A stretch of DNA of 64,000 bases from a virus, in IMG/VR virus record IMGVR_UViG_3300030447_000342; one strand, given 5' to 3'. How positions within the stretch are numbered: the first letter of the stretch is position 1; every line of letters starts with the position of its first letter. Position numbers and translations under genes: made by a program. Of the stretch, positions 24,251-56,019 are shown piece by piece. The notes under the pieces were generated by a model, which had not been told where the DNA came from, ran no database searches, and was given only the letters and a program-made list of their open reading frames with translations.

Positions 24251-24349
24251 TCTGGTTTACGAGCATAGTGCCGAATTCTTACTTTTGCCTTTGGCGAAAA
24301 GCTGCTGAAGGAAATATGTATAACAGCAAATCTACAAAGCGGTTGGTCG

Positions 24350-36991: not shown

Positions 36992-37212
36992 TCAGCTTTT
37001 CCTCTTTTCTTTAGTTTTTCACCATATTTCGCAAAAAACACAGCAAACGCGAACGGTGCTGCAACAATCCAGAAAACACCTACCATAATATACCCGTCTT
37101 CGAACCCATTATATTTGTTATATGGTTCTACGATAACGTACAAGCGGCAAAGTGCGAATGTTACAATCGCACCAATGCAGAGGTACAGGAGCACTAAAAG
37201 GACTGTCATCAT
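36988..37212 (-). CDS. Hypothetical small membrane protein
   Basis: 74 aa, two TM helices. Confidence 0.35.
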   Translation of the reverse strand: MMTVLLVLLYLCIGAIVTFALCRLYVIVEPYNKYNGFEDGYIMVGVFWIVAAPFAFAVFFAKYGEKLKKRGKAE

Positions 37213-38414
37213 TCCTCTTCACCCGCCTTAAAGTTATAAATCGGCTTGATGATGGCATCAATAGTCACTGTTGGTTCGACATTGTTTACGATATCATCCA
37301 TACCTTTGTATGCCATCGGGCATTCATCGAGCGTGCTTCTTCCAACAGATGTAGTGTAGATACCCTCCATCTGCTTCTTGAACTCAGAAACTGTGAATGT
37401 CTCTTTCGCCGCGCTGCGGCTCATCAAACGCCCAGCTCCATGCGGGGCAGAGAAGTTCCAGTCTTCATTTCCTTTGCCGGTACACAGCAAACTACCGTCT
37501 CTCATGTTGATAGGAATCAGCAGCCGCTCACCAGCTTGTGCAGAGACCGAGCCCTTGCGAAGAATCATATTCTCTACATCGATGTAGTTGTGAATAGTTG
37601 TAAACTGCTCTTCGACATGGAAGCCCATACCCTTAACAATGGTGTCCATCATTGCTTGGCGGTTAAGTTCAGCAAAACGTTGAGCAATTTTCATGTCATG
37701 GATATACTGCTCAAACAATTCTCCCTCAACGTATGCAAGCTGCTTTGGAACTCCCGGCTTCTTCGCCTTCATGCCTTTAAGAACAGATTGGATTTCTTTT
37801 TGTCTTCCAGCCGCTTTTAACTCGTTGACAACCTCCTCGATTTCTTCCTTGGAATACGAGGTTAACGCCTTGAACGCAGCTTCCTGATAGAAGTTAGCAA
37901 TCTCCAGACCAAGGTGTCTACTACCGGAATGCACCACAATATAGATGTGTCCATCATCATCTTTGTTGGCTTCGATGAAATGATTCCCTCCACCAAGCGT
38001 ACCGATGCTTTTATATGCGCGGTCTACATTGACCATCTTTACACAGCACAGTTCCGACAGGTCGATGCTACTTGCATATCTATGAGCTTCTGTGCGAATC
38101 TCGAAACCGGACGGAACTCCTGCACGAATAACTTTGTCCAGCTTCTGCGGTTCGATATGCGTTTCTTTGATACGGATAGTTTCCATGCCGCATCCAATGT
38201 CAACGCCGACAAGGTTCGGGCAAATCTTATCCTTGATGGTCATCGTGGTTCCGATTGTACAACCAGCCCCAGCATGAATGTCTGGCATCATACGGACTTT
38301 GCTTCCCTCGATGTACGGTTGATTCAAAAGATTGATAACCTGAGAGATAGACTCATTATCGACCACGTCGGTAAACACCTTTGCGACGCCAAACTTACCC
38401 TGTAACTCAAGCAT
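37209..38414 (-). CDS. rtcB: RtcB RNA 3'-phosphate/5'-OH ligase
   Basis: MMPDIHAGAGCTIGTT..NLVGVDIGCGM and the HGAGR motif HGAGRLMSR. Confidence 0.85.
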   Translation of the reverse strand: MLELQGKFGVAKVFTDVVDNESISQVINLLNQPYIEGSKVRMMPDIHAGAGCTIGTTMTIKDKICPNLVGVDIGCGMETIRIKETHIEPQKLDKVIRAGVPSGFEIRTEAHRYASSIDLSELCCVKMVNVDRAYKSIGTLGGGNHFIEANKDDDGHIYIVVHSGSRHLGLEIANFYQEAAFKALTSYSKEEIEEVVNELKAAGRQKEIQSVLKGMKAKKPGVPKQLAYVEGELFEQYIHDMKIAQRFAELNRQAMMDTIVKGMGFHVEEQFTTIHNYIDVENMILRKGSVSAQAGERLLIPINMRDGSLLCTGKGNEDWNFSAPHGAGRLMSRSAAKETFTVSEFKKQMEGIYTTSVGRSTLDECPMAYKGMDDIVNNVEPTVTIDAIIKPIYNFKAGEEE

Positions 38415-38433: not shown

Positions 38434-39222
38434 TTAGATTAGCGAAATCTTTTCGCTGTGTCCGCGATAGATACTGTCTGTGGTAAACACATGGCGGATT
38501 AAGCCATCCGTGAGAACTGTTCCGCTGTGAATTGTGTTTTCACAATGGGTCACATACAAATACACTTCATTCGCGCCAGCCTCTTTTAGTGCCTTAGCTG
38601 TAAAAGTGAATGTGCCACCGCGAGAACAAATATCATCGACAATCAGCACATTTCTATCGGCAACCTTTTCTGGGCTCGTCAGTTCCAGCCGTTCAATTTT
38701 CCCGGTGCGCCAGTCTCTATGCTTGATGCAGAACACATACTCTCTACCAGCTTGCGATGAATATCGTTTTGCTGCTCCCTCATCAGGATAGCACAACAAC
38801 ACATTTTTGTCATCCAACTTGTCCAGAGCTTTCTGGATGTGCGGCTGCGCGTCATATACCTTGACTCTGTCAAGCAATGCTGCTGATACATTCGAGTGAG
38901 GGTCATCGACTAACACGTCGTCAAAATCCAGCGTGTTGATAAACTCCGCAAACCATTTTAGCGTAAACACTTCGTCCGCATTTTTTACTCTATCCATTCT
39001 GGCATTTGGAATGTATGGGAGCAGCAAGCGGAGGCGAACGTCCCGGTCATGGTCGCGGATATGATTTACCAGATACCATAGAAGGATGCACTCCTCATCG
39101 CCGTCATACTTCCATGTGATATTGAAGATGCGAGTCATTGAGCCAAACGGATTATACCTGAAAGAGGTTGTACCATCGGGGAACTTTGTAAACTCGACCT
39201 GCTTGTCGTTGACAAGAATCAT
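38434..39222 (-). CDS. Ribose-phosphate pyrophosphokinase homolog (Prs-like; candidate ADP-ribose pyrophosphokinase Adps)
   Basis: Type I PRTase/PRPP-binding loop NVLIVDDICSRGGT. Prs-like N-domain. Confidence 0.75.
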   Translation of the reverse strand: MILVNDKQVEFTKFPDGTTSFRYNPFGSMTRIFNITWKYDGDEECILLWYLVNHIRDHDRDVRLRLLLPYIPNARMDRVKNADEVFTLKWFAEFINTLDFDDVLVDDPHSNVSAALLDRVKVYDAQPHIQKALDKLDDKNVLLCYPDEGAAKRYSSQAGREYVFCIKHRDWRTGKIERLELTSPEKVADRNVLIVDDICSRGGTFTFTAKALKEAGANEVYLYVTHCENTIHSGTVLTDGLIRHVFTTDSIYRGHSEKISLI

Positions 39223-39779
39223 GCCGTGACCCCCTCGTTCTCGATGTTAATCTGGCACATTTTCATTGCCGACAGTGCAGTCTTGTGACTCTCTGGTGTC
39301 ACGCCAGCGCAGCAGGAAGCATCGACCGTAATCTTAACTTCCGGCATAAACGCCTTGAGCAGCAAGGCATTTGAGATAACACAGATATCGGTACAAAGAC
39401 CGACAAGGACAATTTCTTCTATGCCATCACCAAACGCAACTTCTGGATATAGGCGACCAGCAAGTGCTAATGAACCAAACGTTTTCTTCTCGAAACCATT
39501 CATCTGGTCATCCGCTGGATGCTTGCTCTGAATTGCTGCTTTAACTGAGCTATGAATCTGCCAGCCATTACTTGCAGATATACAGTGTTTTACCGGCAAC
39601 AATCTTCCTTCTTGCGTTTCGAGGTAATCATCAGAATGGGTGTCTTGTGTCCACAAAACTTCCCCATCAAACTCTTCGATTTTCTTGACGACCTTCGGCA
39701 CAATAGCCTGTGCCTCTGGTGTCCCGAGCGTACCATCAATAAAGTCGTTCTGCATATCAACGACAACAAGAACCTTCAT
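39219..39779 (-). CDS. Isochorismatase-family cysteine hydrolase (PncA-like nicotinamidase candidate)
   Basis: VVDMQNDF, the conserved Lys FEKKTFGS, and the catalytic Cys in GLCTDICV. Confidence 0.7.
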   Translation of the reverse strand: MKVLVVVDMQNDFIDGTLGTPEAQAIVPKVVKKIEEFDGEVLWTQDTHSDDYLETQEGRLLPVKHCISASNGWQIHSSVKAAIQSKHPADDQMNGFEKKTFGSLALAGRLYPEVAFGDGIEEIVLVGLCTDICVISNALLLKAFMPEVKITVDASCCAGVTPESHKTALSAMKMCQINIENEGVTA

Positions 39780-39934: not shown

Positions 39935-40216
39935 TGAACTCGCCTCCGGTTCTCAATTTGCCGACCGCTTTCCGCATGGGGCGTGATTGTTACAGAAGCC
40001 CCATGTGCACAAAGTGACATTTTTAGCAAGCAATTTCCGGGTTATTATTTTTATTCGCTGAATAAAAATTATAACCTCGGAAATGCGAGGCTAAAAATGA
40101 AGAACTCAAATCTTTTCTTCTGCTTTAAGCGAGAAGATACTACACGTTTTGCTGAGACATATGTATGTAGTCAATCTTCAAAGCGGTCTTTATCACAGCG
40201 GTTATCCGCTTATGTT

Positions 40217-40774: not shown

Positions 40775-41257
40775 TTAATCCTCCATTTCCACTATTTCAG
40801 TTGAGACCCTAACGAGCTTGGACAATGCTTTTTCTGTCAGGAACGCATATTGTACGCCAAGCTGCGTACTGGTTAACTCTTTTCGCATTGCTGTAGCCGC
40901 CACGTCAATCGACACATTGCTATTTCTCAGCTTTGTAAATTTACTTTTCAAATTACTTCCTCCGCCAGCCATATATCCGATTACCAAATCGACATTTGGA
41001 GCGGTGCCGAGCCTTGAAGAAACCACGAACCGAAGCCAGTCCTCAGACCTTTCATCAAACTCCAGAACAGAGAGTCCATCCAAGTCTGTGAGCAGATATG
41101 TTTGGACATATCCCACCCGAGAGTTTTTAACTGCCATCGGCAAGGCATCGAAATAATTTTTGGCAAGATAAAAGCCGCATCCGAAATCTCGGTGCGGCTT
41201 ACACTTGTTCAGGGTTGGTACATCGAAATCTGCCGGAGTACCGTGATACAGATACAT
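40775..41257 (-). CDS. Hypothetical protein with an N-terminal L-Y-H-G-T motif
   Basis: MYLYHGTPADF: an HGT motif of the type seen in H-Y-E-class ADP-ribosyltransferases and Tpt1/KptA. Otherwise unassigned. Confidence 0.4.
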   Translation of the reverse strand: MYLYHGTPADFDVPTLNKCKPHRDFGCGFYLAKNYFDALPMAVKNSRVGYVQTYLLTDLDGLSVLEFDERSEDWLRFVVSSRLGTAPNVDLVIGYMAGGGSNLKSKFTKLRNSNVSIDVAATAMRKELTSTQLGVQYAFLTEKALSKLVRVSTEIVEMED

Positions 41258-41278: not shown

Positions 41279-41355
41279 TGGTCTGGGTGAGAGGACTCGA
41301 ACCCCCGACATCTTGCTCCCAAAGCAAGCGCACTACCATCTGTGCTACACCCAGA
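41279..41355 (-). tRNA. tRNA-Pro (anticodon UGG), CCA encoded
   Basis: Cloverleaf parsed by hand. Anticodon loop TTTGGGA closed by CTTGC/GCAAG. T-loop TTCGAGT. 3' CCA. Confidence 0.8.
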
Positions 41356-41383
41356 TATAATGGTTTTGTTTCCGAACACACAC

Positions 41384-41444
41384 GCACTACTGATGGGTTC
41401 GAACCATCCTCACCATAAGCATCGCCATCAATGCTTAGTAGTGC
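41384..41444 (-). ncRNA. Aberrant 61-nt tRNA-like element: acceptor stem and T-arm present, only one internal arm, no CCA
   Basis: GCACTAC..AGCA[ttgatggcga]TGCT..GATGG TTCGAAC CCATC..GTAGTGC. Too short for D-arm plus anticodon arm. Confidence 0.3.
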
Positions 41445-41482
41445 GTGCCGGGGCAGAAAGGAAAACGGATATGTCAGTCCGT

Positions 41483-41558
41483 TGGAGCTGGTGACAGGGC
41501 TCGAACCCGCAACCCAGTGAGTACAAATCACTTGCGCTACCAATTACGCTACACCAGC
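41483..41558 (-). tRNA. tRNA-Thr (anticodon UGU), CCA encoded
   Basis: Anticodon loop TTTGTAC closed by AGTGA/TCACT. Acceptor GCTGGTG/CACCAGC. 3' CCA. Confidence 0.8.
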
Positions 41559-41602
41559 GTGCACCCTCGTCTTTCCGAGGTGTCAGCTTTTAGCTAAAAG
41601 GC

Positions 41603-41671
41603 TGCTGATGACTGGACTTGAACCAGCGGCTCGCACTTCCGGTGCTGCTCTACCAACTGAGCTACATCAGC
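41603..41671 (-). ncRNA. Aberrant tRNA-like element with a truncated anticodon arm (4-bp stem, 5-nt loop), 1-nt variable region, no CCA
   Basis: Normal acceptor GCTGATG/CATCAGC, D-arm GCTC AGTTGGTA GAGC and T-arm GCTGG TTCAAGT CCAGT. The anticodon region GCAC cggaa GTGC cannot form a 7-nt loop. Confidence 0.3.
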
Positions 41672-41785
41672 ATAGATACGCCCTGCGCCCGTAGGACTCC
41701 GTGTGCACCCGGCTGTGTCTCTTACAGAGATAACAGTTGAGTGATGAACTAACCGTACAAACGTAAGCATGACCAACAGAGCAGA

Positions 41786-41861
41786 TGGAGCTGGAACTCG
41801 GAGTCGAACCGAGAACCCACGCTGTACGAAAGCGTTACTCTACCAGTTGAGCTATTCCAGC
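41786..41861 (-). tRNA. tRNA-Thr (anticodon CGU), CCA encoded
   Basis: ACGCT TTCGTAC AGCGT anticodon arm. T-arm CTCGG TTCGACT CCGAG. 3' TCCA. Confidence 0.8.
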
Positions 41862-42020
41862 ATAGATGCCATCCTGAAACTATGGCGATGTCATTAACAC
41901 CACCAATACAAACTCACTATGATGGCAGTTTTGATAGCGTGAAAGGAGAATCATGGATAAATCATCGTGGCACAAGGGATTGCAGGGATAGAAAACAAGC
42001 TCTAATGCCGAAGATGATTT

Positions 42021-42095
42021 TGGCAGGGGCAGTAGGATTTGAACCTACGAATAACGGAGTCAAAGTCCGCTGTGTTACCGCTTCACCATACCCCT
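42021..42095 (-). tRNA. tRNA-Gln (anticodon UUG), CCA encoded
   Basis: GCGGA CTTTGAC TCCGT anticodon arm. D-loop AAGCGGTAA. Acceptor AGGGGTA/TGCCCCT. Confidence 0.75.
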
Positions 42096-42213
42096 GTATC
42101 TGCAGGCTCATGCAGCGGCGTCCCGCCAAACCAACCTGTAACCGACTTCCAGAGCAGGCTCTGACGTGTCGTAAAGGCATTTCCTTTAACGCATAATTTA
42201 ATGGTTTCTTACT

Positions 42214-42290
42214 TGGAGCGGCGTACCAGACTCGAACTGGCACCACCGGTTTGGAAGACCGGAGTGCTAACCGTTGAACACCAACACCGC
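42214..42290 (-). tRNA. tRNA-Gly (anticodon UCC), CCA encoded
   Basis: CCGGT CTTCCAA ACCGG anticodon arm. 3' GCTCCA. Confidence 0.8.
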
Positions 42291-42476
42291 ATGGTCGGCT
42301 TCTCGCTTAGATTGTCACACGCTACCGGCAACTACGCTCCGAAAAGTCGTAGCCCCTATTCCGTCAGGTCAAACCGGTCTTGACGCATCAAGACAAGCGC
42401 AGTTTTCAGCAAGCATTTTCATTCTTTGTGAGGTAAGCCGATAATCTCTCACATCAGTTGGGAGCTACCCAACAAC

Positions 42477-42552
42477 TGGCAGGGGTGAATGGATTCGAAC
42501 CACCATCTGACGGTTTTGGAGACCGCTATGTTAGCCATTGCACCACACCCCT
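42477..42552 (-). tRNA. tRNA-Trp (anticodon CCA), CCA encoded
   Basis: GCGGT CTCCAAA ACCGT anticodon arm. Acceptor AGGGGTG/CACCCCT. Confidence 0.8.
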
Positions 42553-42642
42553 TGGCGGAGTGGACAGGACTTGAACCTGCACATCCTTTCGGATTACTCA
42601 CGGTTTAGCAAACCGCTGCCTTACCGTTAGGCTTACCACTCC
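42553..42642 (-). tRNA. tRNA-Ser (anticodon GCU), long variable arm, CCA encoded
   Basis: GCGGT TTGCTAA ACCGT anticodon arm. Long extra arm. Directly abuts tRNA-Trp. Its 5' end overlaps the stop region of the downstream CDS by ~10 nt. Confidence 0.8.
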
Positions 42643-43314
42643 ATCGGGATTACTTTATTATACAGAGCAATAAACTGCTCATTGACCTGCTTGTCCACAT
42701 GATAATGTCCAAAGAACCACCGCTTGAATGTGAGGTCGGAACAAACCCTATCTAAAAAGCTGACCATCGGGTCGTTCTCGTACCAGCTTGCGAGCAGAGT
42801 CTGAACACTCCTTGGCGCACAATGTGTAATTACATAGTCAACTCGCCAATGATTTTGTTCGAGCGCTGCAATCGCTCGTTCCATTTCTTCTCTGGACGGC
42901 ATTTCCTCTTTCCACCATGAGATATGTTCCACGCGATACTCTTTATCAACAGAGCGAGCACCGCCCATGCAGAAGATTTTCTTTCCATCAATCGTGAGCA
43001 CCTGCCCTCTGTCCAGATGATAGATGTCAGGAGCGATTTCACGCACCTTTCCGCCAAATTTGTCAATCAGCGGGAACTGGTAGAGCATATCAAAGTTCTC
43101 ATGGTTGCCATCAATCCAAAGTGTCGTGAAGTTTTTCGCTGTCAGCCAGTCTTGCCACCACATCTCTCGATGCGAACCGTCCCAGCAGAGTCCAAAATCG
43201 CCACATATGATTACGAAATCATTCTTCGTCAATTCCTTTTGTTGTGGGAACTTTGTTGTATTAAGCTTGGCAATATCAATGTTTGCGTGTGTATCTCCAG
43301 TGACATAAATCATG
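42633..43314 (-). CDS. Calcineurin-like metallophosphoesterase
   Basis: MIYVTGDTHAN, ICGDFG and GNHEN metal-binding motifs. AAAGGAA RBS before the Met at 43314. Confidence 0.65.
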
Positions 43315-43579
43315 CTCAGTTCCTTTCTCATCTGCAGTCCATATGTATATTCTGTTCTGGTCTCTTCGTTTATCTCCTGTAGCGACGGGATTTAGATGAG
43401 CTGAAAGCGAGTTCAAATCCCAAGCGGCGATGATGAAATCATTGGGAGACAATGGGTTCGACAGTCGCTCATCGGATGGAGATGACAAGACATCCCGAAT
43501 AGTTTTAATGAGCTGTACAGCGAGCTTAGGCGCCTTCGCAGCAGGCTGCGGGCGGGGAATTGTGCTGTCCAGCAAAGTG

Positions 43580-43630
43580 ATACTTCAGCCTTTGGCGTGA
43601 AGCACATTCCTTACGAAATGTTATTCACTG
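43580..43630 (-). repeat. Copy A of the conserved two-hairpin RNA-like motif, ~300 nt downstream of the RT gene
   Basis: Minus strand: CAGTGAATAA-[ACATTTC GTAA GGAATGT]-GC-[TTCAC-G-CC AAA GGC TGAAG]. A GNRA-tetraloop hairpin followed by a GCC/GGC-capped hairpin. Confidence 0.6.
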
Positions 43631-43735
43631 CAAATGATAATTTGATTATCCTGTAATCTACATTGAGGTAGCTCCCTACGAGGAGGAGCTCCGGCACCCA
43701 GTGACTGGCGTGCGACATCTTTTGGTCGTCTCGTT

Positions 43736-43762
43736 GAATCCATTGTGGCACAATGGATTCAA
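43736..43762. other. Perfect 12-bp hairpin with a 3-nt loop, inside the structured non-coding region between motif copies A and B
   Basis: GAATCCATTGTG gca CACAATGGATTC. Confidence 0.5.
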
Positions 43763-43861
43763 GTGATTCGGGCTGCTCACCGGTGGTTCGCAGCCTCGAA
43801 GGATGACTTGAGTCTGCAGGTGAATGCGCCTCCGGGGAGGTTTTCCTCCCTATCAAGTTGT

Positions 43862-43912
43862 TACTTATGCCTTTGGCGATAAGCATTGCTTTCGCAATTA
43901 TGCATTACAGGA
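43862..43912 (-). repeat. Copy B of the two-hairpin motif, 20 nt downstream of the RT stop codon
   Basis: Minus strand: CTGTAAT-GCATA-[ATTGC GAAA GCAAT]-GC-[TTATC-G-CC AAA GGC ATAAG]-TAACAA. Confidence 0.6.
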
Positions 43913-43932
43913 TTGCGGGTTATTTATAGACG

Positions 43933-45069
43933 TTACCGCAGGTCGTCCTTCATCATGCGGATTACATCCACATTCATTTTCTTGTTGATGTAAGCTACAA
44001 TTGCGTCGATGGTCTCTTTTTCGACCATACGATAATAGCTATGCAGACCATACATTACCTGTACATCATTCCGCTCCCAAGCGACACCATTGTTCTTATC
44101 TGTGATGTAATTGTACAGCATTGACTGGAACTGCTTTTTCTTTTTATGACCGACCGTAATCTCGTTGTCCTTATTCAGCATAACGCCAAGATTCCAGTTG
44201 CGCCCCGCTGATGAACCATACCGAGTCTTGCTTGCATTGATTGTGAATGGGGCACCAAAACTGCTCAATGTACTTACTACCAGCTCTTCAACAGAGCGAA
44301 CATCAAAATCATACTTGGATGAAATAATGAAGTCATCCGCATATCTGGTATAAATGAAGCTCTGTTTTTCAAAATTACGGAGCGTATTCGACAGTTTGAA
44401 ATCAACCGGAATCATCATTACGTTTGTGATGAGCGGTGAAATTGGGGTGCCCTGCGGTAGCCCACCATTTAAGAACGCTAACGACATAGCTGTCCGCAAT
44501 GCTGCCTCGCCCTGTGGCTCTTTTACAATCTCACTAAAAGGAAAAACCATCGAGAACATTGAGATGGCATAATCCAATGTTGTGCTGCCAAAAAAGTCGT
44601 GCAGGTCAAGCTTTGCGAACCATTTGCTGCTGTTCTTCTGGTGACGCTTAACCGCATCGACTGTACTCCGCTTCTTTACATAAGCAAACGCGGCAGTATG
44701 ATAGAGTGCATGGAAATCATCCTCGAAAATCGTTTTGAGTCTTCTCAAGGCGTCCATCAGCTCTGCCTTTGGCGCATCGATTCTACGAAGACCACCAGAT
44801 TTCTTTGGGATGTAAAAGGTCTCATACAACTCGCTCCGTTCCTTTGCACGAAGCTCTGCTGTATCGTTATTAAATCGCACGAGTTTTCCGATTAAAGCTT
44901 CAACACCAATCTTGCTGGAAAAATGTTCACTGACATTTTCGACCTCGTATGTTCTTGTGTTTGCAATATTGGCATTGACAACCGGAGGTGTCTGATAGTT
45001 TTGAAACAGGTACTCTTCCAGTGTCATCTGATGATAAATCGGTGACTGCCTAACAGTGATATAGACCAT
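43933..45069 (-). CDS. Reverse transcriptase. Retron/group-II-like RT motifs, no maturase or endonuclease domains, and no DGR-type SQ motif.
   Basis: FYIPKKSGGLRRIDAP (RT motifs 1-2). AYVKKRSTVDAVKRH (region 2a, NAxxH-like). LDLHDFFGS (motif A). LPQGTPISPLITN (motif B', QGxxxSP). YTRYADDFIISS (motif C, YADD). FTINASKTRYG and NLGVML (motifs 6-7). AAGGAGG RBS. Confidence 0.8.
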   Translation of the reverse strand: MVYITVRQSPIYHQMTLEEYLFQNYQTPPVVNANIANTRTYEVENVSEHFSSKIGVEALIGKLVRFNNDTAELRAKERSELYETFYIPKKSGGLRRIDAPKAELMDALRRLKTIFEDDFHALYHTAAFAYVKKRSTVDAVKRHQKNSSKWFAKLDLHDFFGSTTLDYAISMFSMVFPFSEIVKEPQGEAALRTAMSLAFLNGGLPQGTPISPLITNVMMIPVDFKLSNTLRNFEKQSFIYTRYADDFIISSKYDFDVRSVEELVVSTLSSFGAPFTINASKTRYGSSAGRNWNLGVMLNKDNEITVGHKKKKQFQSMLYNYITDKNNGVAWERNDVQVMYGLHSYYRMVEKETIDAIVAYINKKMNVDVIRMMKDDLR

Positions 45070-45095
45070 TTCTTCCCCTCCTTGTCCAATAACTA

Positions 45096-45104
45096 ACTGT
45101 AACC
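45096..45104. repeat. Short inverted repeat ACTGTAACC, just upstream of the RT start, complementary to the CGTTACAGT segment of motif copy C (a1/a2-like)
   Basis: rc(ACTGTAACC) = GGTTACAGT versus CCGTTACAGT at 45429-45438: 8 of 9 nt match. Confidence 0.3.
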
Positions 45105-45388
45105 TACATATGTCTGCTGCTTCCCAGAATTCCTAAGTCTGAAGACTACGTCGTCCCTGTGGGAGGTGGTGCGAGCTCTTGCAAGATGCGAGATTTTTTT
45201 TCTTTGATTTCATTGCGACTGAAAGCATGAGTCTGATGTTAGCACATTTCGTCCTTGTATCGAAGATTTGGCGAAAAGTGCTTGACATTTGGTTTGCTTT
45301 ATGGCGTGATGCTGCCGACCCGTGGCAGCCGGTTTGCTTTCAGGGTTCCACCGCGTCATCCTCCGGGGGTCATCCTCCCGACAATTTG

Positions 45389-45439
45389 TTACTTTAGCCT
45401 TTGGCGTAAAGCTCTCTTACGAGAAAATCCGTTACAGTC
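45389..45439 (-). repeat. Copy C of the two-hairpin motif, ~320 nt upstream of the RT start
   Basis: Minus strand: CTGTAAC-GGATT-[TTCTC GTAA GAGA]-GC-[TTTAC-G-CC AAA GGC TAAAG]-TAACAA. Confidence 0.6.
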
Positions 45440-45441
45440 TG

Positions 45442-45462
45442 TGGCGCATTAAGGCTGCGCCA
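45442..45462. other. Perfect 7-bp hairpin whose loop contains the stop codon of the upstream gene, immediately 5' of motif copy C
   Basis: TGGCGCA ttaaggc TGCGCCA. The TAA stop (rc of tta at 45449-45451) lies in the loop. Confidence 0.5.
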
Positions 45463-46255
45463 TACCTAATAATTCAAACAGTTCTTCGTCCGTAAAGACA
45501 TTTTGAGTTGTGAATGGCTTGATGAAAAACACGCCGTCCTCTCGTTGTTCGACAATCGTGTCAGGGCTCAACGTGCACACCGGTCTTACCCCGGAACAGC
45601 TTGATGCTGTCAGCCTGTTTAACACACCAGAGCGATTCGAAATCGCCGCTCTTTCGGTCTCAACATCGTCTAACAGCCAGAAGCTCATAAATCCACGGTC
45701 TGAATCAAGCCCTGCATAACGAGCTTTCAGGTCGAACAAGTCGGCTGTCGGATTCGGACGAATGCCTTTTCTTTTGAATAAGTCAAAGCGCCGCCCATCT
45801 TGGAGGCTAAAAATGTCTGCAATTGATGGTAGGCGAATCAACGAAGACACTCGGTTCTCTCCGACCACATACTCTTTCCTAACCAAAGAAGCAATCTCGT
45901 GGTCTTCAAAGAAATACAGAAACCCGTAATGGTCTTCATAGCGAGCATAACTATACCTCACAAAGGCACCGGGCGAAGAATCATTATCGTGCATTGCGTG
46001 ATACCACATCATCTGGTCACTGTTCAAGAACGAAAACAGATTTGACACTGGATACTTCGCATTATTAACACGCCTATAATGCCCAGTCTCTTCCGCCGCA
46101 TCGAAGCACAGGTAGTCGATAGCTTTTTCTGTGATAAAATCACAGTTTGGATTGCCTTTCAGCCAAACAATCGGGTACGGGTTGTCTTTGTCCACACCGT
46201 ACTTGCCCATCACGAGTTGTGCGCCAACCTTGAGAGCACCAACGGTCGTGTCCAT
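45449..46255 (-). CDS. Hypothetical protein (268 aa) immediately upstream of the RT-associated non-coding region
   Basis: ORF with a good start context. No recognised motif. Not a detectable DGR variable protein (no VR/TR pair found). Confidence 0.45.
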   Translation of the reverse strand: MDTTVGALKVGAQLVMGKYGVDKDNPYPIVWLKGNPNCDFITEKAIDYLCFDAAEETGHYRRVNNAKYPVSNLFSFLNSDQMMWYHAMHDNDSSPGAFVRYSYARYEDHYGFLYFFEDHEIASLVRKEYVVGENRVSSLIRLPSIADIFSLQDGRRFDLFKRKGIRPNPTADLFDLKARYAGLDSDRGFMSFWLLDDVETERAAISNRSGVLNRLTASSCSGVRPVCTLSPDTIVEQREDGVFFIKPFTTQNVFTDEELFELLGMAQP

Positions 46256-46288
46256 ACCTTACCCCCCTCCCTTCGTTCTTTTTGAAAA

Positions 46289-46966
46289 TTAAAACGCATC
46301 CAGCAGCGGCTGGAATGCGTCACAAATAATCAGCTTATTCAGCCCCTTGCCCCTGATGTACTTGACGAAGTTGCTCACACCCAGAGCACAAATCACTCTG
46401 ACCGTAGTGACAACACCAAGCGTAATGCCGCAAGCTGAGACTGGAGTTTCTTCCGCCGCCTCATCGTGTGTAAAATTCATGGAGTTGAGGAGGTCTTTCT
46501 TCATCTTGTAGTCAGACCAATCAGCAGCATAGTGCTGACCAGCCTCCAGCAGAGTTCTGAAATCAAACATCGCCTTTACATACGGATTGTCGAAGTGTTT
46601 CTCAACAATCTTTTTTCTCAGCTCGATGTTATCAACGCACAAGAACACATAGCCGGATAACTGCTGCCCGTTCCACCCATCCTTGTAAAGCTTCAGGTCA
46701 TCCTTAACATCAGGATTGATGTCGAAAAGAATATCCGCCAATGCCTCGACCTTAGAGCGCCCAATGTCCTGCTGACGGAAAATCTGATTTGCCAGATTGT
46801 GCGGACTTACTGTGTCCATATCCCACAGTGCGATGTTCGTGAGTCCTAAGCGAACCAGTAGCTCCGCAACCGTCGCGCCGACAGAACCACACCCGACGAT
46901 ATGGATTCTACAATCAACCTTCTCGGGCTGGAAATATTCATAGCTCTTTGACAGGTCAATAGCCAT
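46289..46966 (-). CDS. E1-like ThiF/MoeB-family adenylyltransferase
   Basis: Rossmann motif RIHIVGCGSVGATVAELLVRLG. LWDMDTVSPHNLANQ (D.D.V..SNLNRQ-like). Confidence 0.7.
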   Translation of the reverse strand: MAIDLSKSYEYFQPEKVDCRIHIVGCGSVGATVAELLVRLGLTNIALWDMDTVSPHNLANQIFRQQDIGRSKVEALADILFDINPDVKDDLKLYKDGWNGQQLSGYVFLCVDNIELRKKIVEKHFDNPYVKAMFDFRTLLEAGQHYAADWSDYKMKKDLLNSMNFTHDEAAEETPVSACGITLGVVTTVRVICALGVSNFVKYIRGKGLNKLIICDAFQPLLDAF

Positions 46967-46967
46967 A

Positions 46968-47900
46968 TTACTTACCTCCTAAGTATGCATAAGGGTCGTA
47001 GTCATCTTCGTCTTCCCAGCCATGCATTGATTCTTGGCAGGCATTCTGTCCATGCCAACCAGCGCCAATTCTGGTTCTGGGTTTCTCTCCCTCGTTCTTT
47101 TTACCAGATGACTTATCCTTGTTTTCTTCTTTCTTACTGTCCTTCTTGTCGTCGGACTTACCTGCAAGTGGATTGTACGGAGTACCAGCCGGAGCTCCCC
47201 TGTATCCCTGATTGTAGTAACCGCCGTATCCGCTCTGACCGCCATACGCATAGGACTTTGACTTCACCATATCCTTCGCGTTTTTGATAAACTCATCAAG
47301 TCCTTCATTCTGACCGATAATCTTGACCGTGATATCTTTATCCTCAAACATCACGTTCTTCTTGAGGTCATAGATTTTATTTGTGCTTGCAAATGACTTG
47401 TTCCAAATCATAAAGATGTAGAAGTCATTATCGCCAAGCATCCCGAGGATTTCCTCTTGATGATTGAGGTCAACAGAGGATGGAGACGTACCCATATTTA
47501 CATGAGAATGTCCCTGCATATAGATGTGGTTGAAACGCTCATCTTCGATGTTTTCCTGAATCCACAGAGCATATTTCTCGGTGTCCATCTCAACCGTTGC
47601 GCCGGTTACCTCCTGCGGATAGACAACGATGTCATCGATGACATACTCGTCAAGCGATTCATCTTCAGTTCGACGTGCGACACCATGCCATGCGACCTCT
47701 TTATCGAACTCTTTGATAAGCATAGTCATCTTTGCCCACGCCTCTGCGCTGAAGTAAACTACTGCCTTTCTGTCACCACATGAGAACGCTTTGGTAAAAG
47801 AAAGCTTTCCATCCGAGAGCTTTGTAAGTGACAAAGCCTTCTCAAAATCTTGACGGCACTCATCAATGAGTTCCTGCGTCAACTTAATTGGTCTGCTCAT
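46968..47900 (-). CDS. JAB/MPN (JAMM) metalloprotease-domain protein with a low-complexity G/Y/K-rich C-terminus ending ..YLGGK
   Basis: JAMM motif HIYMQGHSHVNMGTSPSSVDLNHQ (H-x-H-x7-S-x2-D) with an upstream Glu in AWHGVARRTEDE. Confidence 0.65.
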   Translation of the reverse strand: MSRPIKLTQELIDECRQDFEKALSLTKLSDGKLSFTKAFSCGDRKAVVYFSAEAWAKMTMLIKEFDKEVAWHGVARRTEDESLDEYVIDDIVVYPQEVTGATVEMDTEKYALWIQENIEDERFNHIYMQGHSHVNMGTSPSSVDLNHQEEILGMLGDNDFYIFMIWNKSFASTNKIYDLKKNVMFEDKDITVKIIGQNEGLDEFIKNAKDMVKSKSYAYGGQSGYGGYYNQGYRGAPAGTPYNPLAGKSDDKKDSKKEENKDKSSGKKNEGEKPRTRIGAGWHGQNACQESMHGWEDEDDYDPYAYLGGK

Positions 47901-49377
47901 TTTGCGCCTCCTCCGTCTGCTCATCCTTTGCCTCCTGCTCATCAAGCCATCTAATTGCTTCGTTCGGCTTTACAACGCGACCATCTGGCAACTCAATACA
48001 ACGACTGACCGTGTTATTTGACCACATGGTTCTCATAAACTCGCCCATAACTGCACTGTCGCCGAAGTTCAGACTCTTACAGGACGCAATACACTGCTCA
48101 AGTGCACCGATATAATTTCGTTTTCTCAGCAGTTCATTGATAGTCCTGCTGTAATTGCCCATGCAATGATAACGGTCAATATGCGTATTAGGCATATAAC
48201 CATCAAATGTGTAATCAGAAAAATCACCAGTCTGCGCAGAAACACTACCATTCAGGTCGAATCTATATGCTGCGCAAAAGCGGATTCTAAGCCGAGGATT
48301 TTCACTTACGAAAATCTCCTGCATCAGCTTCTGCATTTTCTCTGAAGCTGCCGCATTGTGACCGTTGCCACCATCCGGTCGATACACATAACTGCTTCTA
48401 TTGTTGATTGCTCGCTCAGCCATATCTCTGTCAAAGTATTCAAGGTAGTCTTTAACCGAGAAATACATATCCGTATTGCTAACATGAGACAGGACAAGTC
48501 TGTTGTTGCAGAGGAAATAATCCATGATTTCAGAGTCTCCACCGCCCTCTGCAATTCTTTGCTCAAGTCCCAACAATCTGATGCACTTGTCATTGCGGCG
48601 CGACAGATACGCGCCGATAGAATCATTGAGTCGCTGAATCTCCATGTCAATAGATTGGATTTCATTGCGAACAGTATCACATTCGATGCGCTCATATCTG
48701 GTTTCAAAATCACCCAGTAACTGACGAATCCGCGCTGTTCTGAAATCATATCCCTCGGCAAGCTTTGCAATGCACTTCTCATAGTTTGCTGAATTTGTTT
48801 CTCGCAAAGATTGCATCAATGCAAGCTCATCTTCTGTCAAACCATCATCCTGATTCAGATACCACGGCATGAATGCAAGAATAGATACCTGAAGATAATG
48901 CATTTTCTTAACATCAAGATTGTCAACGAAGACAATCACCGACTTCTTGTCAGGGTTGATATAACAATCAACATTGAATGACTTCCGATAAAACGCTTTG
49001 ACCTTATCAAGACGGTGATACTCTGGGTAGATAGAAGTAAACTTGTCCTCCACAATCTGCATACAAGCCAGATTGCTATTTTGGTCAGCATTGAAGCTAT
49101 GAACTATGAGCGCACCGCTGGCATTCATTTGATAACTGCTACAGATAGCACTAACCGCACGTTCTGCTGGAACGTTACGGATAGTGTTCCCATCATAATT
49201 GGTCGAACCGAAAGTCAGGTAAACACTTTCGTCCTCTTTGATTCGAGGTGCAACCAGTGCACGAAGCGTTGAAAGGAACGAACAGTCATTGCCAAAATAG
49301 CTTCCGGTAATGTTCTGAAAAAAGCTATTAGCCGCCTCTGACGTAAACGGTGTCGATGTAATGCTTGTCTTGAACAC
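47884..49377 (-). CDS. Hypothetical protein (497 aa), first gene of the JAB / E1 / 268-aa / RT string
   Basis: Long ORF, no motif recognised. Overlaps the JAB gene start. Confidence 0.5.
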   Translation of the reverse strand: MFKTSITSTPFTSEAANSFFQNITGSYFGNDCSFLSTLRALVAPRIKEDESVYLTFGSTNYDGNTIRNVPAERAVSAICSSYQMNASGALIVHSFNADQNSNLACMQIVEDKFTSIYPEYHRLDKVKAFYRKSFNVDCYINPDKKSVIVFVDNLDVKKMHYLQVSILAFMPWYLNQDDGLTEDELALMQSLRETNSANYEKCIAKLAEGYDFRTARIRQLLGDFETRYERIECDTVRNEIQSIDMEIQRLNDSIGAYLSRRNDKCIRLLGLEQRIAEGGGDSEIMDYFLCNNRLVLSHVSNTDMYFSVKDYLEYFDRDMAERAINNRSSYVYRPDGGNGHNAAASEKMQKLMQEIFVSENPRLRIRFCAAYRFDLNGSVSAQTGDFSDYTFDGYMPNTHIDRYHCMGNYSRTINELLRKRNYIGALEQCIASCKSLNFGDSAVMGEFMRTMWSNNTVSRCIELPDGRVVKPNEAIRWLDEQEAKDEQTEEAQNEQTN

Positions 49378-49403: not shown

Positions 49404-49488
49404 TGGTGGGGAATATCGGATTTGAACCGATACGGCATACGCCAACAGAACTTAAATCTGTTGTGTCTTCCAATTCCACCAATTCCCC
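49404..49488 (-). tRNA. tRNA-Leu (anticodon UAA), long variable arm, CCA encoded
   Basis: ACAGA TTTAAGT TCTGT anticodon arm. Extra arm GGCGTATGCCGTATC. Confidence 0.8.
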
Positions 49489-50404: not shown

Positions 50405-51064
50405 TTAGAAACTGAAAGCCGGGGCGACGCCACAGGAACTCCTTGCGCCGTTACGGTCCGCGCCGCCGTTCGCGCCCACACCGCAGAAGGCGCCGCTGAT
50501 GCCGTAACTAGGAGAACGCAGCATAGTGTACTCAGCGGAACCATTACGCTTCTTGCCCCAAGGGACATCTTCTTGCCGGTAATATTCGTACCAATGACCT
50601 TCGCCCGGTGCCGAATAGATGTTCCGTCCAAAGGTTTCTTTTTCAGACTTAATCCAAAACTTGCACTCCGTTTCGAGCAATTCGTTCGCTCCGTCATAGG
50701 TGTTTGCAGTAAGCTTGATTACTGGTTCGACCACCTCAAGAATCTCGTCTGGCATGAGCTGGTAAATTACGCCATCTTCGTCGTTCATCTTATGGAACAG
50801 CTCTGTTGCACCCCAAGAGCCTCTGTTTGTGTCGTTGCTATTCCAACGATGCCGGTTTGGAAGGCAGTCAACCATCTCCCAAGTTAGTGGGAGGATACGA
50901 CCACTTTTTGTAACATCGTGTTTGAATCCAATGATACGGAACTGAACCAGTGTATCGTCTTTTAATCTGACGTTTTTGAAATCGCCTAATCTAAGGAAGT
51001 CGGGTGCCATATCCCCAAGCCCCTTCAGCGAACGCCACGGCATATTATCCAAACATTCAGGCAT
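50405..51064 (-). CDS. Hypothetical protein
   Basis: 219-aa ORF. Confidence 0.45.
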   Translation of the reverse strand: MPECLDNMPWRSLKGLGDMAPDFLRLGDFKNVRLKDDTLVQFRIIGFKHDVTKSGRILPLTWEMVDCLPNRHRWNSNDTNRGSWGATELFHKMNDEDGVIYQLMPDEILEVVEPVIKLTANTYDGANELLETECKFWIKSEKETFGRNIYSAPGEGHWYEYYRQEDVPWGKKRNGSAEYTMLRSPSYGISGAFCGVGANGGADRNGARSSCGVAPAFSF

Positions 51065-51092: not shown

Positions 51093-51182
51093 TGGCGGGG
51101 AGTGTAGGATTCGAACCCACGGACGGCTTTCACCGCCAACGGTTTTCAAGACCGCCACCATAAGCCACTCGGTCAACTCCCC
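51093..51182 (-). tRNA. tRNA-Ser (anticodon UGA), long variable arm, CCA encoded
   Basis: GCGGT CTTGAAA ACCGT anticodon arm. Acceptor GGGGAGT/ACTCCCC. Confidence 0.8.
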
Positions 51183-51199
51183 AAATAAAAAGAGACGGG

Positions 51200-51862
51200 T
51201 CATTCGCCCGTCTCAGTCTCAGTTTCATCTTCTTCATCTTCCGGCTCATCCACGCCATCGATATCATATTCATCATACGGAAACTCTGTAAAGACTTCAC
51301 AGCCGCTTTCTTTTTCCGTTATAATCATCGGTCGATAGATATGGAAACCGTAATCTTCTGAAAGCTCTTTCAAAAATCCATCAAGGATTTCATCGACAGC
51401 TTCATAGCCATACGCTTCTAAGATATTTGTTCCGTCGTTGTCACCCTCCTGCAGCGCGATTGCGAGGAAATCTGCCATAGCCAAACGGAGTTCATCATCT
51501 CGCTCATACATAGCATCCTCTATGTCCATCCATGTTTCATCGCTTTCTTCTTTGCCGCCATCTGGATTATCTCCCGGAACATACTTGTTGTCTGTAATCA
51601 CAACAGGAAAGAGATAGCGTGTGTAGAATTTCTTCGACACCGCTGTACAGTCCTCCTCACTCACGCAAGGTTCTTTGTACTCAATTTTTTCGTTGCCCTT
51701 TGCAACAGCCAAAACTGGGAGGTCGTTTTCCTCGGTAAGATACACGGCATACTCCGTGTCGGTGTTCTCAGCAATGAGAACCATTTCTTTGTTCAAACGT
51801 TTTCTGCTTGCTTGGAAAAACCCCCATACTGCATCAGCGGGGATATGAATATGAACTCCCAT
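51200..51862 (-). CDS. Hypothetical protein with a highly acidic C-terminus
   Basis: Start MGVHIHIP with an AAGGAGG RBS. The track's longer ORF reads through the tRNA-Lys gene and is rejected. Confidence 0.45.
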   Translation of the reverse strand: MGVHIHIPADAVWGFFQASRKRLNKEMVLIAENTDTEYAVYLTEENDLPVLAVAKGNEKIEYKEPCVSEEDCTAVSKKFYTRYLFPVVITDNKYVPGDNPDGGKEESDETWMDIEDAMYERDDELRLAMADFLAIALQEGDNDGTNILEAYGYEAVDEILDGFLKELSEDYGFHIYRPMIITEKESGCEVFTEFPYDEYDIDGVDEPEDEEDETETETGE

Positions 51863-51888
51863 AAGGAACCTCCTTATATATTTGACTT

Positions 51889-51964
51889 TGGTACTCCCGA
51901 CGAGGCTCGAACTCGTGACCCCAGCATTAAAAGTGCCGTGCTCTACCAACTGAGCTACGGAAGT
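51889..51964 (-). tRNA. tRNA-Lys (anticodon UUU), CCA encoded
   Basis: CGGCA CTTTTAA TGCTG anticodon arm. T-arm CACGA GTTCGAG CCTCG. Confidence 0.8.
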
Positions 51965-52135
51965 ATATTGACCGGCTATTACGGTATGCCCAGAAAGGTG
52001 GACACGCTTGAGTTCCACAAACAGTTTTGCCCGCAAAAGATGGAGGTGAATATTTGATGGAGGTGTTTATCTTAATGCAGGTACGAAGAAAGGAACTTAC
52101 AAATGAACGAAGGACACGCGCATGGCAAAACTGTC

Positions 52136-52219
52136 TGGTGCAGGATAAGAGACTTGAACTCTTACGCCGGAGGCAGCGGGACTTGAATCCGCCGTGTCTG
52201 CCAATTCCACCAATCCTGC
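52136..52219 (-). tRNA. tRNA-Leu (anticodon CAA), type II with a long variable arm, CCA encoded; A:C mismatch closing the anticodon stem
   Basis: GCGG(A) TTCAAGT (C)CCGC anticodon arm. Extra arm CTGCCTCCGGCG. T-arm AAGAG TTCAAGT CTCTT. Confidence 0.65.
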
Positions 52220-52226
52220 ATATTTC

Positions 52227-52427
52227 TTATATCCAACCAGCTAATACTGCGATTGTTGTCACACTCAAAACGGTTAGTACAATGTTGTCATACACTATTC
52301 GGTTGTGGAGATTTTTGCTTGCTCGCTCAACCTTTCTTTGGAGTCGCTCAATTTCTTCGTTTTTGCTTTCGCGCTCAAATTTGTATTTGCACCACGCTTC
52401 GCCTGATATGAAGTCACCACGCTCCAT
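52227..52427 (-). CDS. Hypothetical small protein with a C-terminal TM helix
   Basis: 66-aa ORF. Confidence 0.3.
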   Translation of the reverse strand: MERGDFISGEAWCKYKFERESKNEEIERLQRKVERASKNLHNRIVYDNIVLTVLSVTTIAVLAGWI

Positions 52428-52455
52428 GTTTATACCTCCTTACCAAAGTCATGTT

Positions 52456-52782
52456 TTATCGAATGCCGTCTACCCACAACTCTAACGTGCGACGATTTGC
52501 GTACTGTTTACAGAGTTCTTCGATGGATACACCATGTGCCTTTGCATCCGTTTTCATTGCCGTAAACTGGTCTCTGTATTTTTTGACCATCTTTTCAACG
52601 GCAAGAAAATGCTCTTTGTCTTTAGGATAGAAGGCAATATCATCAAGGCAGACACTGCTTATATCTCCCGTGTGGCAAATTACTTTCCAGCAATTTTTGC
52701 ATGGCGCATCATCTATGCTCACCATATGATTGATGCAGTCACTGCAGTGGACAACCACTCCATTTACCTTAATTGGTTTCAT
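52456..52782 (-). CDS. Hypothetical Cys-rich protein
   Basis: 108 aa; CSDCINH and CKNCWKVICH cysteine cluster. Confidence 0.4.
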   Translation of the reverse strand: MKPIKVNGVVVHCSDCINHMVSIDDAPCKNCWKVICHTGDISSVCLDDIAFYPKDKEHFLAVEKMVKKYRDQFTAMKTDAKAHGVSIEELCKQYANRRTLELWVDGIR

Positions 52783-52804
52783 TGGTTGCTCCTCCTTTTA
52801 TGAG

Positions 52805-52880
52805 GTGGTGGAGATAGCCGGACTCGAACCGGCGACCCTCTGCTTGCAAAGCAGATGCTCTCCCAGCTGAGCTATACCCC
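52805..52880 (-). tRNA. tRNA-Ala (anticodon UGC) with the G3:U70 identity pair, CCA encoded
   Basis: GGGGGTA TA GCTC AGCTGGGA GAGC; TCTGC TTTGCAA GCAGA; acceptor 3' TATCTCC A CCA. Near-identical architecture to bacterial tRNA-Ala. Confidence 0.85.
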
Positions 52881-53007
52881 CATACTTTACGGCATAAAAC
52901 CCAAGTCAACTCCGCCGTTTGATGTTCCCCACACTAATACCTCAATGCTTCGGATTGCATCAATAAGCCTTGCGCTCCGATACCCAAGGAATGAACATCG
53001 TTCCCAC

Positions 53008-53087
53008 TGGCGCCGAGAGCCGGTCTTGAACCGCCATTATAGCCTGATGTTGACAGCGCTATGTTTTACCAATTAAACTACCTCGGC
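53008..53087 (-). ncRNA. Aberrant tRNA-like element: normal acceptor, D- and T-arms, but an extended 8-bp bulged anticodon stem with loop UCAACAU; CCA encoded
   Basis: GCCGAGG TA GTTT AATTGGTA AAAC; ATAGC-g-CTG [tcaacat] CAG-GCTAT; T-arm GGCGG TTCAAGA CCGGC with one G:G mismatch; GCCA end. Confidence 0.3.
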
Positions 53088-55605: not shown

Positions 55606-56019
55606 TTACACCTCCCGCAATTTTTTATGGGAGAAGGTTTTACCTCAATAGGTTCGGGCGCGACTCCGAAAACTATTTTCAACTCCAACCTTCCAAGGAT
55701 GCACTTTCATGTTTGTTTTCAACTCCCACGCGGTGGCAGCATTTCCTCCACTTGAACACTTTCGTAGTCCCGCACGCCCCGTAATGGCTTTCAGATTTTG
55801 GATGCCTCCTCACTTACCTTCACCAATACAGGGTCTAAGCGTTAGGTGAGTTGTGCGCACAGGGTTCACATCCCATTAAACCCACCCCACGGAATCGTAC
55901 CGTGCCAGCCTTACGACATCGAACCTCGCTTTAGCGTGAACCAAACCCGACCAACAATCAGGTAGATTCCGCCATACCCATACCACCGGAGTTCAAGGAA
56001 CCCCGGAAAACCGAGCTGT

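Follow-up and report, generated by a model that had tools for sequence, protein, structure and literature searches.

A phage-encoded candidate retron in which several template RNAs probably share one reverse transcriptase

The 64-kb window analysed here, a stretch of 64,000 nucleotides (nt) of viral DNA (IMG/VR record IMGVR_UViG_3300030447_000342) whose positions serve as coordinates throughout, contains a gene for a retron-class reverse transcriptase (RT) preceded by a 379-nt non-coding gap. This region is probably the msr-msd gene of a retron encoded by the phage, which would have at least five such template RNAs for a single RT in the window. Retrons are understood as bacterial anti-phage toxin-antitoxin systems composed of one RT, one non-coding RNA (ncRNA) plus an effector. 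The original prediction drew attention to the region by a short inverted repeat resembling the a1/a2 repeats of retrons, by copies of a motif and by a hairpin at a stop codon. The minus strand carries all genes around the finding. The ncRNA directly upstream of the RT (unit C; SL1 and SL2 are its stem-loops, MFE stands for minimum free energy and R1 for the covariance model described below) and its surroundings are as follows, in minus-strand order:

46255-45449, minus strand: gene upstream of the RT, 268 amino acids (aa), DUF6273-like
379 nt, minus-strand order: non-coding gap from the 268-aa gene to the RT
45095-45439, minus strand: unit C, a complete msr-msd-like ncRNA of 345 nt; its MFE fold closes a1/a2; R1 68 bits, E 1e-12
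45431-45439, minus strand: a1 of unit C (GACUGUAAC), covarying with a2 in relatives
45430, minus strand: G immediately 3' of a1 and candidate for the branching (priming) G; alignments A2 and A4 show no other base here
45413-45424, minus strand: SL1 of unit C (UCUC-GUAA-GAGA), an msr hairpin of variable sequence
45382-45412, minus strand: SL2 (GCUUUA-C-GCC-AAA-GGC-UAAAGU) with the conserved tail GUAACAAAUUG
45104-45109, minus strand: conserved 3' junction AUGUAG; its last base, adjoining a2 on the 5' side, is the 'opposing G' (45104)
45095-45103, minus strand: a2 of unit C (GUUACAGUU), covarying with a1
43933-45069, minus strand: retron-class RT, 378 aa, catalytic YADD intact

From its 5' end unit C thus consists of a1, a G, two covarying msr-type hairpins, a variable interior, the AUGUAG junction with the opposing G, and a2. 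It is encoded on the same strand as the RT. From the end of a2 there are 13 nt to the Shine-Dalgarno sequence of the RT and 25 nt to its ATG, and not the 30 nt that had been proposed for the distance to the ribosome-binding site (RBS). The complementarity predicted between the plus-strand letters ACTGTAACC (45096-45104) and CGTTACAGT (45430-45438) is real at eight of the nine positions, while the ninth is G-U; on the minus strand the a1/a2 helix of unit C comprises eight Watson-Crick pairs and one terminal G-U. A G directly after a1 was registered in 60 of 62 covariance-model matches. SL2 together with the tail GUAACAAAUUG is likely to be the recognition element of the RT, and the AUGUAG junction may serve as the template start. 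The retron-like interpretation of the repeat is supported by an anchored and covarying helix, by the class of the RT, by both Gs and by the msr hairpins, and among the retron features that can be judged at the sequence level, contiguity with the RT, a1/a2, both Gs and msr hairpins are all present; the exceptions are the effector, none being recognisable, and the long msd stem, which is seen in part of the units.

Taken alone, the 8-bp repeat of unit C proves nothing. According to our estimate (380^2/2/4^8) about one perfect inverted repeat of 8 bp is expected by chance per 380 nt, and the repeat of unit C was too short for listing in the repeat search, which is what a fortuitous match would look like. 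It acquires significance from being anchored at the invariant G and from closing the full anatomy of a retron ncRNA. A helix ending exactly before the invariant G of unit C was equalled in 0.5% of shuffles, and the repeat recurs at the anchored position and covaries over dozens of units, by which a chance match is refuted and its probability becomes practically negligible.

The related genomes comprised 60 IMG/VR loci fetched via the RT (56–100% identical) and a second, independent set retrieved by means of ThiF, a neighbouring protein, in which RT identity went down to 48%. The covariance model R1 was built from 19 units and describes the 5' module, from the last part of a1 through the G, SL1 and SL2 to the tail GUAACAAnUUG. 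It matched one to four units at nearly every locus with an RT homologue, the most distant included, on more than 60 gut phage contigs; all matched units were found on the RT strand, one of them directly upstream of the RT. Loci obtained with ThiF showed the same pattern of units as those obtained with the RT, down to 48% RT identity. Where the RT was at least 70% identical, the core of SL2 occupied the three expected positions and the flanking repeats covaried. In unit C ACUGUAAC/GUUACAGU changed to AUGAAUUGUAAC/GUUACAAUUCAU or GAAUUGUAAC/GUUACAAUUC, while in the two units found downstream of the RT AUCCUGUAAU/AUUACAGGAU changed to UUCCUGUAAU/AUUACAGGAA (unit B) and UCAUUUGCAGU/ACUGCAGAUGA to GCAUCCGCAAU/AUUGCGGAUGU or CCAUUUGCAAU/AUUGCAAAUGG (unit A). 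Absence of the repeats from relatives, or their failure to covary there, had been named beforehand as an outcome that would refute the prediction; they were found at the same anchored position, and they covary.

For the 62 model matches the best ungapped helix ending before the invariant G was determined, with its partner allowed 120–480 nt downstream. In about 50 of them the anchored helix comprised 8–13 bp and was mostly perfect, with a shuffle p ≤ 0.03 in about 47. These helices are very diverse, as exemplified by UAAAUGUACAAU/AUUGUACAUUUA, UGUUACCGUAAU/AUUACGGUAACA and AGCAACCACAAU/AUUGUGGUUGUU. In a fixed-register alignment of 48 distinct units the inner eight pairs were paired in 48/48, a percentage inflated by the pre-selection of these units for having a helix (49 of the 62 model matches), which does not inflate the diversity of pair types, and here all 12 of 12 pairs changed on both sides. 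The covariation score of a1/a2 was 0.654 versus 0.219 for shuffles (none of 500 reached 0.654), and it did not exceed 0.136 when the partner was slid by 1–3 columns. For SL1 and SL2 all 62 matches were used, with 97.7% of cells paired and 13 of 14 pairs covarying. All five pairs of SL1 change on both sides over 60 distinct units (95% of cells paired), and eight of the nine pairs of SL2 covary (99% of cells paired). This alignment was fitted to the model; independent MAFFT alignment with RNAalifold gave the same helices. At the 3' end the sequence ..yAUGUAG followed by a2 is near-invariant in 49 units and the G that precedes a2 is conserved to at least 90%; 'two opposing G residues' belong to the published retron consensus (PMC7736814). 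Unit lengths in the family range from 226 to 372 nt.

The enzyme itself gave only RVT_1 in Pfam (9.9e-20). Its best match in PADLOC was retron RT_II-A (6.6e-46), followed by I-A, XIII and III-A, and all top matches there were retron RTs; the same is true for the 12 best matches in PDB (Ec83, Ec78, Ec67, Kva2 and Ec86). Among NCBIfam models retron_St85_RT scored 175 bits (2e-51), and the group II maturase model scored far below it. Drt2 (41.9 bits, cutoff 390) and Drt3a (31.3 bits, cutoff 200) did not reach their cutoffs. YADD is conserved across the RT family, which is large in metagenomes (5444 proteins at E ≤ 1e-10 among 8000 candidates examined), and the protein has an N-terminal extension of about 60–75 aa.

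Unit C is not the only one in the window. The repeat search gave a 45-nt motif in three copies (45413-45369, 43885-43841 and 43604-43560), which on the minus strand forms a hairpin with invariant C-GCC-AAA-GGC and compensatory changes in the outer stems (CUUUA/UAAAG, CUUAU/AUAAG and CUUCA/UGAAG). Before each copy stands another small hairpin, with a loop of the GNRA type, and C, B and A each have their own flanking inverted repeat, a G directly after its 5' arm and a terminal helix closed in the MFE fold. The three copies are therefore paralogous complete units, C located upstream of the RT and B and A in tandem downstream. The motif copies of the original prediction do exist, and its picture was incomplete in that those downstream of the RT are complete units with a1/a2 of their own. 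Two further units of a variant 'X-type', E and D, lie about 3 kb and about 20 kb from the RT region:

About 600 nt, after the RT: second non-coding stretch, between the RT and the metallophosphoesterase gene
43648-43913, minus strand: unit B, starting 19 nt after the RT stop; R1 79 bits; fold z-score −6.9
43913-43904, minus strand: a1 of unit B (AUCCUGUAAU), then G 43903; a2 (AUUACAGGAU) at 43657-43648 with the opposing G 43658; perfect 10 bp
43734-43762, minus strand: perfect 14-bp hairpin in unit B with the conserved mini-motif CAUUGUGCCACAAU
43328-43637, minus strand: unit A, ending at the metallophosphoesterase RBS; R1 72 bits; fold z-score −3.95
43637-43627, minus strand: a1 of unit A (UCAUUUGCAGU), then G 43626; a2 (ACUGCAGAUGA) at 43338-43328 with the opposing G 43339; 11 bp, one of them G-U
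43331-42633, minus strand: metallophosphoesterase gene
39963-40188, minus strand: unit E, X-type; perfect 9-bp a1/a2 and fold; interior z-score −7.5
40188-40180, minus strand: a1 of unit E (GACCGCUUU), then G 40179; AUGCGG and then a2 (AAAGCGGUC) at 39971-39963
24118-24344, minus strand: unit D, X-type, about 20 kb from the RT; R1 36 bits (24330-24260), E 1e-5; interior z-score −4.2
24344-24336, minus strand: a1 of unit D (AACCGCUUU), then G 24335; AUGCGG and then a2 (AAAGCGGUU) at 24126-24118

In the X-type units a1 is placed a few bases further upstream than in C, B and A, and the a1/a2 of D and E differ from each other by one compensatory pair. Both carry SL1, SL2 and a long stable interior stem-loop, so that they look closer to a textbook msr-msd than C, B and A do. 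One relative (L012) holds an orthologue of unit E with the same a1/a2. It is the shared SL2, and this feature only, which suggests that D and E may be served by the same RT. A terminator-like hairpin (GCCCGC-UAC-GCGGGC) followed by a run of six U was noticed at 24235-24249 (minus) in the middle of the putative template of unit D, an odd place since the RNA must be transcribed through it. Scanning of viral contigs with the X-type a1-junction pattern ACCGCTTTGNAGATT (14 specified bases) returned mostly unrelated contigs, and the pattern was rejected as too unspecific.

Five same-strand intergenic copies, two of them kilobases away from the RT, might also be expected of non-autonomous retroelements or dispersed repeats copied by the RT, with a1/a2 as their terminal inverted repeats. 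The copies are, however, old paralogues with unalignable interiors, they occupy orthologous positions across diverged phages, each with its own type of a1/a2, and neither target-site duplications nor recent identical copies were seen. This makes such an origin very improbable.

Unit interiors diverge faster than the flanking genes, while the ends are conserved. Orthologous interiors cannot be aligned beyond close relatives. In 16 phages with RT proteins 99–100% identical, the 5' and 3' modules are 90–99% identical (5/6 of them 96–99%), the interiors 79% (C), 86% (B) and 92% (A), and the flanking genes 94–97% at the nucleotide level. The interior elements of unit C pointed out earlier, namely the hairpin GCTGCC-gacccgt-GGCAGC (45311-45329), the GGTTTGCTTT pair and the TCATCCTCC pair, are all present, though TCATCCTCC is not a tandem, its copies being 5–6 nt apart; these hairpins and repeats are not conserved even among phages with 99–100% identical RTs. 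The base composition of the interiors is shifted modestly towards C and away from U, with 28% C and 19% U as against 20% and 26% for genes in the neighbourhood. Only units B, D and E have clearly structured interiors, with a long stem-loop in D and E and partly in B. A hairpin CAUUGnnnnCACAAU occurs in 13 of 49 units at a distance of 85–153 nt (mostly 103–128) from the unit 3' end, with 1.9 expected in shuffles, and could be a stop signal for the RT. As a test of DNA-level selection, the share of G-U pairs in interior helices (7.1% vs 8.4% in shuffles) is uninformative.

The last unit of each array ends 10–35 nt before the RBS and the start of the next gene. Such a position, the remoteness of units D and E from the RT, and the weak structure of most interiors, unlike a canonical msd, would also suit structured cis-regulatory leaders or small RNAs, whose ordinary P1 stem was taken for a1/a2 and which are not reverse transcribed, the RT working elsewhere. 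It is difficult to reconcile this with the presence of a unit directly upstream of the RT in nearly every locus over the range of 48–100% RT identity, or with the G after a1 and the opposing G before a2, which are specific for retrons. Conserved ends combined with a free interior are unexpected of an ordinary regulatory RNA, and Rfam, searched over the whole window at the gathering threshold, gave no family at any unit, nor any in 43000-45700 at E up to 10. We consider regulatory RNAs of this kind improbable.

With the retron interpretation there remain several points that weigh against it. About 12 of the 62 model matches lack a convincing a1/a2 at the anchored position. As a group the interiors hardly exceed shuffles in structure (median z −0.66), and most interiors of the C, B and A type do not have the single long msd stem-loop typical of retrons. 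The match of unit E to the covariance model is weak (18 bits, 40190-40095), and another partner is conceivable for the X-type units. The score of the RT with retron_St85_RT is under the cutoff of 235, and the hallmark triplets of the retron RTs are degenerate. These hallmarks are NAXXH in region X and VTG in region Y, with H and G as the most conserved residues (Mestre et al., PMC7736814). In alignment with Ec83, NAKIH is replaced by AVKRH and VTG by NLG; in 14 diverse family members the H of NAXXH and the G of VTG never vary, whereas N/A and V/T are not retained. Since the best matches are all retron RTs but the scores stay under NCBIfam equivalog-type cutoffs, the protein is classified, on its sequence, as a retron-class enzyme of a distinct subclade. 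No model of a retron effector matched any of 13 neighbouring proteins, so that no effector of a described type is recognisable near the RT. Finally, that multicopy single-stranded DNA (msDNA) with a 2'-5' branch is synthesised by the RT and the units is a supposition drawn from the analysis and not from experiment.

By analogy with characterised retrons, the units would be transcribed with the surrounding minus-strand operon and the RT would recognise and bind the conserved SL2. The primer would then be the 2'-OH carried by the G that follows a1 (45430 for unit C), copying would start at the ..AUGUAG junction beside a2 and run 5'-ward into the variable interior, and RNase H would trim the template, leaving a branched RNA-DNA molecule, the msDNA. 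One RT with several templates would in this way produce a small repertoire of different single-stranded DNAs (ssDNAs).

With canonical retrons (Ec86/Eco1, St85/Sen2, Ec78/Eco7, Ec83; types I-A and II-A of Mestre et al. 2020) the system shares a retron-class RT, an upstream ncRNA on the same strand, a1/a2 of 8–13 bp, the G after a1, the opposing G before a2 and one to three short msr hairpins. It differs from them in being encoded by large uncultivated gut phages instead of a bacterial defence island, in having several ncRNAs per RT (upstream, downstream and kilobases away) instead of one, and in the absence of a recognisable effector. Its units are 226–372 nt long, most interiors evolve fast and have no long stable msd stem-loop, and its RT is under the family cutoffs and bears the N-terminal extension. 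Retron arrays have been described only as engineered 'multitrons' (10.1101/2023.07.17.549397), in which, as here, tandem msr-msd units are combined with one RT and each may template a different DNA. Multitrons are synthetic and Eco1-based, whereas the array of the phage is natural, has its own a1/a2 in each unit and is conserved across a phage family. In the type VI Retron-Vpa2 a hybrid RNA is used, so that cDNA synthesis controls translation of a downstream coding sequence on the same transcript (10.1101/2025.10.22.683967). The arrays considered here likewise abut the RBS of the next gene; unlike type VI, PADLOC RT_VI gives 8.2e-27, much weaker than RT_II-A, and there is no small toxin or helix-turn-helix partner. 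DRT2 and DRT3 resemble our system in having a single RT gene after a structured template ncRNA of a few hundred nt, but belong to another RT clade, and the anatomy of a1/a2 with the branching G is specific for retrons. Within the incomplete coverage of a full-text literature search, neither a lytic-phage retron nor a natural retron with multiple ncRNAs was found described, and a prior description is possible.

The gene adjoining unit C raises one more possibility. Two DUF6273-like paralogues are encoded on the minus strand (45449-46255 and 50405-51064), and for the product of the first, next to unit C, a match to the PHROG family 'Hoc-like head decoration' was obtained at 2.6e-14. Its evolution is much faster than that of the RT, with 41–50% identity where the RT has 74–79%. 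A phage-borne RT beside a variable surface-type gene recalls diversity-generating retroelements (DGRs), and the region might be a DGR-like template repeat diversifying this fast-evolving gene. Short-word BLAST of units C, B, A and D against the 64-kb window gave, however, only chance-level 9–14-mers, with no variable-repeat partner and hence no template/variable repeat pair, the RT is of the retron class and outside the DGR clade, and many loci keep the units and the RT without the DUF6273 gene. Diversification of the neighbour deserves scarcely any credence. The metallophosphoesterase gene is also dispensable among loci. In two relatives (L106, 3892-3962, and L108, 5682-5752) an extra unit was observed between the ThiF and DUF6273 genes, leaving the latter flanked by units on both sides.

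The following other genes are placed near the RT:

46289-49377, minus strand: cassette of a 497-aa protein (p497), a JAB-like protein and a ThiF/E1-like protein, upstream of the RT
40775-41257: DUF3990
39219-39779: isochorismatase-family protein
38434-39222: PRTase
37209-38414: RtcB RNA ligase

The only matches in the effector search near the RT were to E1 and JAB-like proteins, to DUF3990/PDC candidates and, at a distance of 5 kb, to a PRTase domain. The genes around the RT differ from locus to locus, except for the ThiF-JAB-p497 cassette, which is present in every locus obtained with RT or ThiF as a query (L001-L108), down to 48% identity of the RT and 52% of ThiF. This constancy may be plain synteny, since all these phages are syntenic relatives and linkage is inseparable from common descent. 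DUF3990, isochorismatase-family, PRTase and RtcB proteins together with many tRNAs are typical of phage counter-defence regions, and the neighbourhood looks like one of them.

The stop-codon hairpin of the original prediction is situated at the end of the DUF6273 gene, 5' of unit C:

45442-45462, minus strand: perfect 7-bp hairpin (TGGCGCA / TGCGCCA) with a 7-nt loop

Its loop does hold the stop codon TAA (45451-45449, minus) of the open reading frame (ORF) 46255-45449. As a delimiter of the ncRNA-like region it is present, yet it turned out to be a separate element of moderate conservation outside the retron unit, and it is not a retron feature. Most relatives with the DUF6273 gene keep this hairpin, with a compensatory variant in L030 (GGUGUG/CACACC). 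No U-tract follows it and it gave no match to an intrinsic terminator; it may be a processing site or a 3'-end stabiliser of the upstream message.

Some observations concern the transcription and coding of the locus. A scan for sigma-70 promoters found none on the minus strand near the units, and the terminator-like matches at 44501-45380 belong to the plus strand, i.e. to the cDNA sense. Two minus-strand ORFs, 43611-43886 (91 aa) and 43276-43575 (99 aa), overlap units B and A. A domain-family search gave no match for either, and the regions cannot be aligned between relatives, so these ORFs are likely spurious and a trap for gene callers. The SL2 core CGCCAAAGGC occurs also inside the RT coding sequence (44765-44774, minus), where it encodes part of ..IDAPKAEL..; having no flanking features of a unit and no covariance-model match, it is probably coincidental. 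In three relatives (L053, L054 and L055, 4001-5365) the fingers region of the RT contains about 77 extra aa, inserted in frame after 'YNTFY' and replacing the IPKKSGGL segment.

Two groups of RNA genes accompany the locus in the window:

41282-42642, 49407-49488 and 51096-53087, minus strand: 13 tRNA genes in three clusters flanking the RT region
55751-55907, 58189-58319 and 58495-58566, minus strand: RAGATH-36, RAGATH-4 and RAGATH-16 RNAs (134, 148 and 96 bits)

With 13 tRNA genes and three RAGATH RNAs, the latter grouped within 3 kb, the window looks like a part of a large phage. RT homologues were found on IMG/VR viral contigs of 50–130 kb, and also on contigs binned into metagenome-assembled genomes (MAGs) of gut Clostridia (GTDB MAG contigs, L109-L124). 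The bins were mostly Clostridia (Oscillospiraceae, Acutalibacteraceae, Roseburia, Eubacteriales), with single bins of Prevotella and Alistipes, and one homologue of the MAG set resided on a 359-kb contig. This binning hints at the host range, and a prophage or a very large phage relative is possible. Search of the region 43000-46300 by blastn against 50,697 deposited phage genomes gave no match, and the best match at the protein level among deposited phages was an unannotated faecal phage record with 41% identity.

Given a retron-class RT with several templates and no recognisable effector in phages abundant in gut metagenomes, one has to ask what a virus uses reverse-transcribed DNA for. Most likely, though this is speculation, the msDNAs are themselves the active product for the phage, acting as decoys or sponges of host immunity or as RT-dependent switches on downstream leaders. 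In order of our preference, the msDNA could act as a sponge or decoy for host immunity whose sensors respond to ssDNA, to DNA ends or to phage recombination and single-strand-binding proteins; the RT could control downstream genes, an idea based on the arrays abutting the next RBS and on the hybrid-RNA precedent of type VI; or competing phages could be excluded via an unrecognised effector. As a tentative proposal, to which we would not commit ourselves, this may be an effector-less retron of widespread large gut phages, probably of Clostridia, which is used offensively and converts 3–5 templates into ssDNAs acting on the host as immunity decoys or as RT-dependent counter-defence switches.

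Conserved ends combined with free, fast-diverging interiors point to a cargo engaged in an arms race. The family is also a natural test of one retron RT serving several templates in trans, and the SL2 handle and the junctions of a1 with G and of G with a2 are defined closely enough for direct mutagenesis. It offers a retron scaffold multiplexed by nature, whose templates are long and weakly structured; scaffolds of this kind have been engineered for editing genomes at multiple sites. If the offensive use is true, this would be a 'multitron' of natural origin and, among retrons, the first in a pro-viral role.

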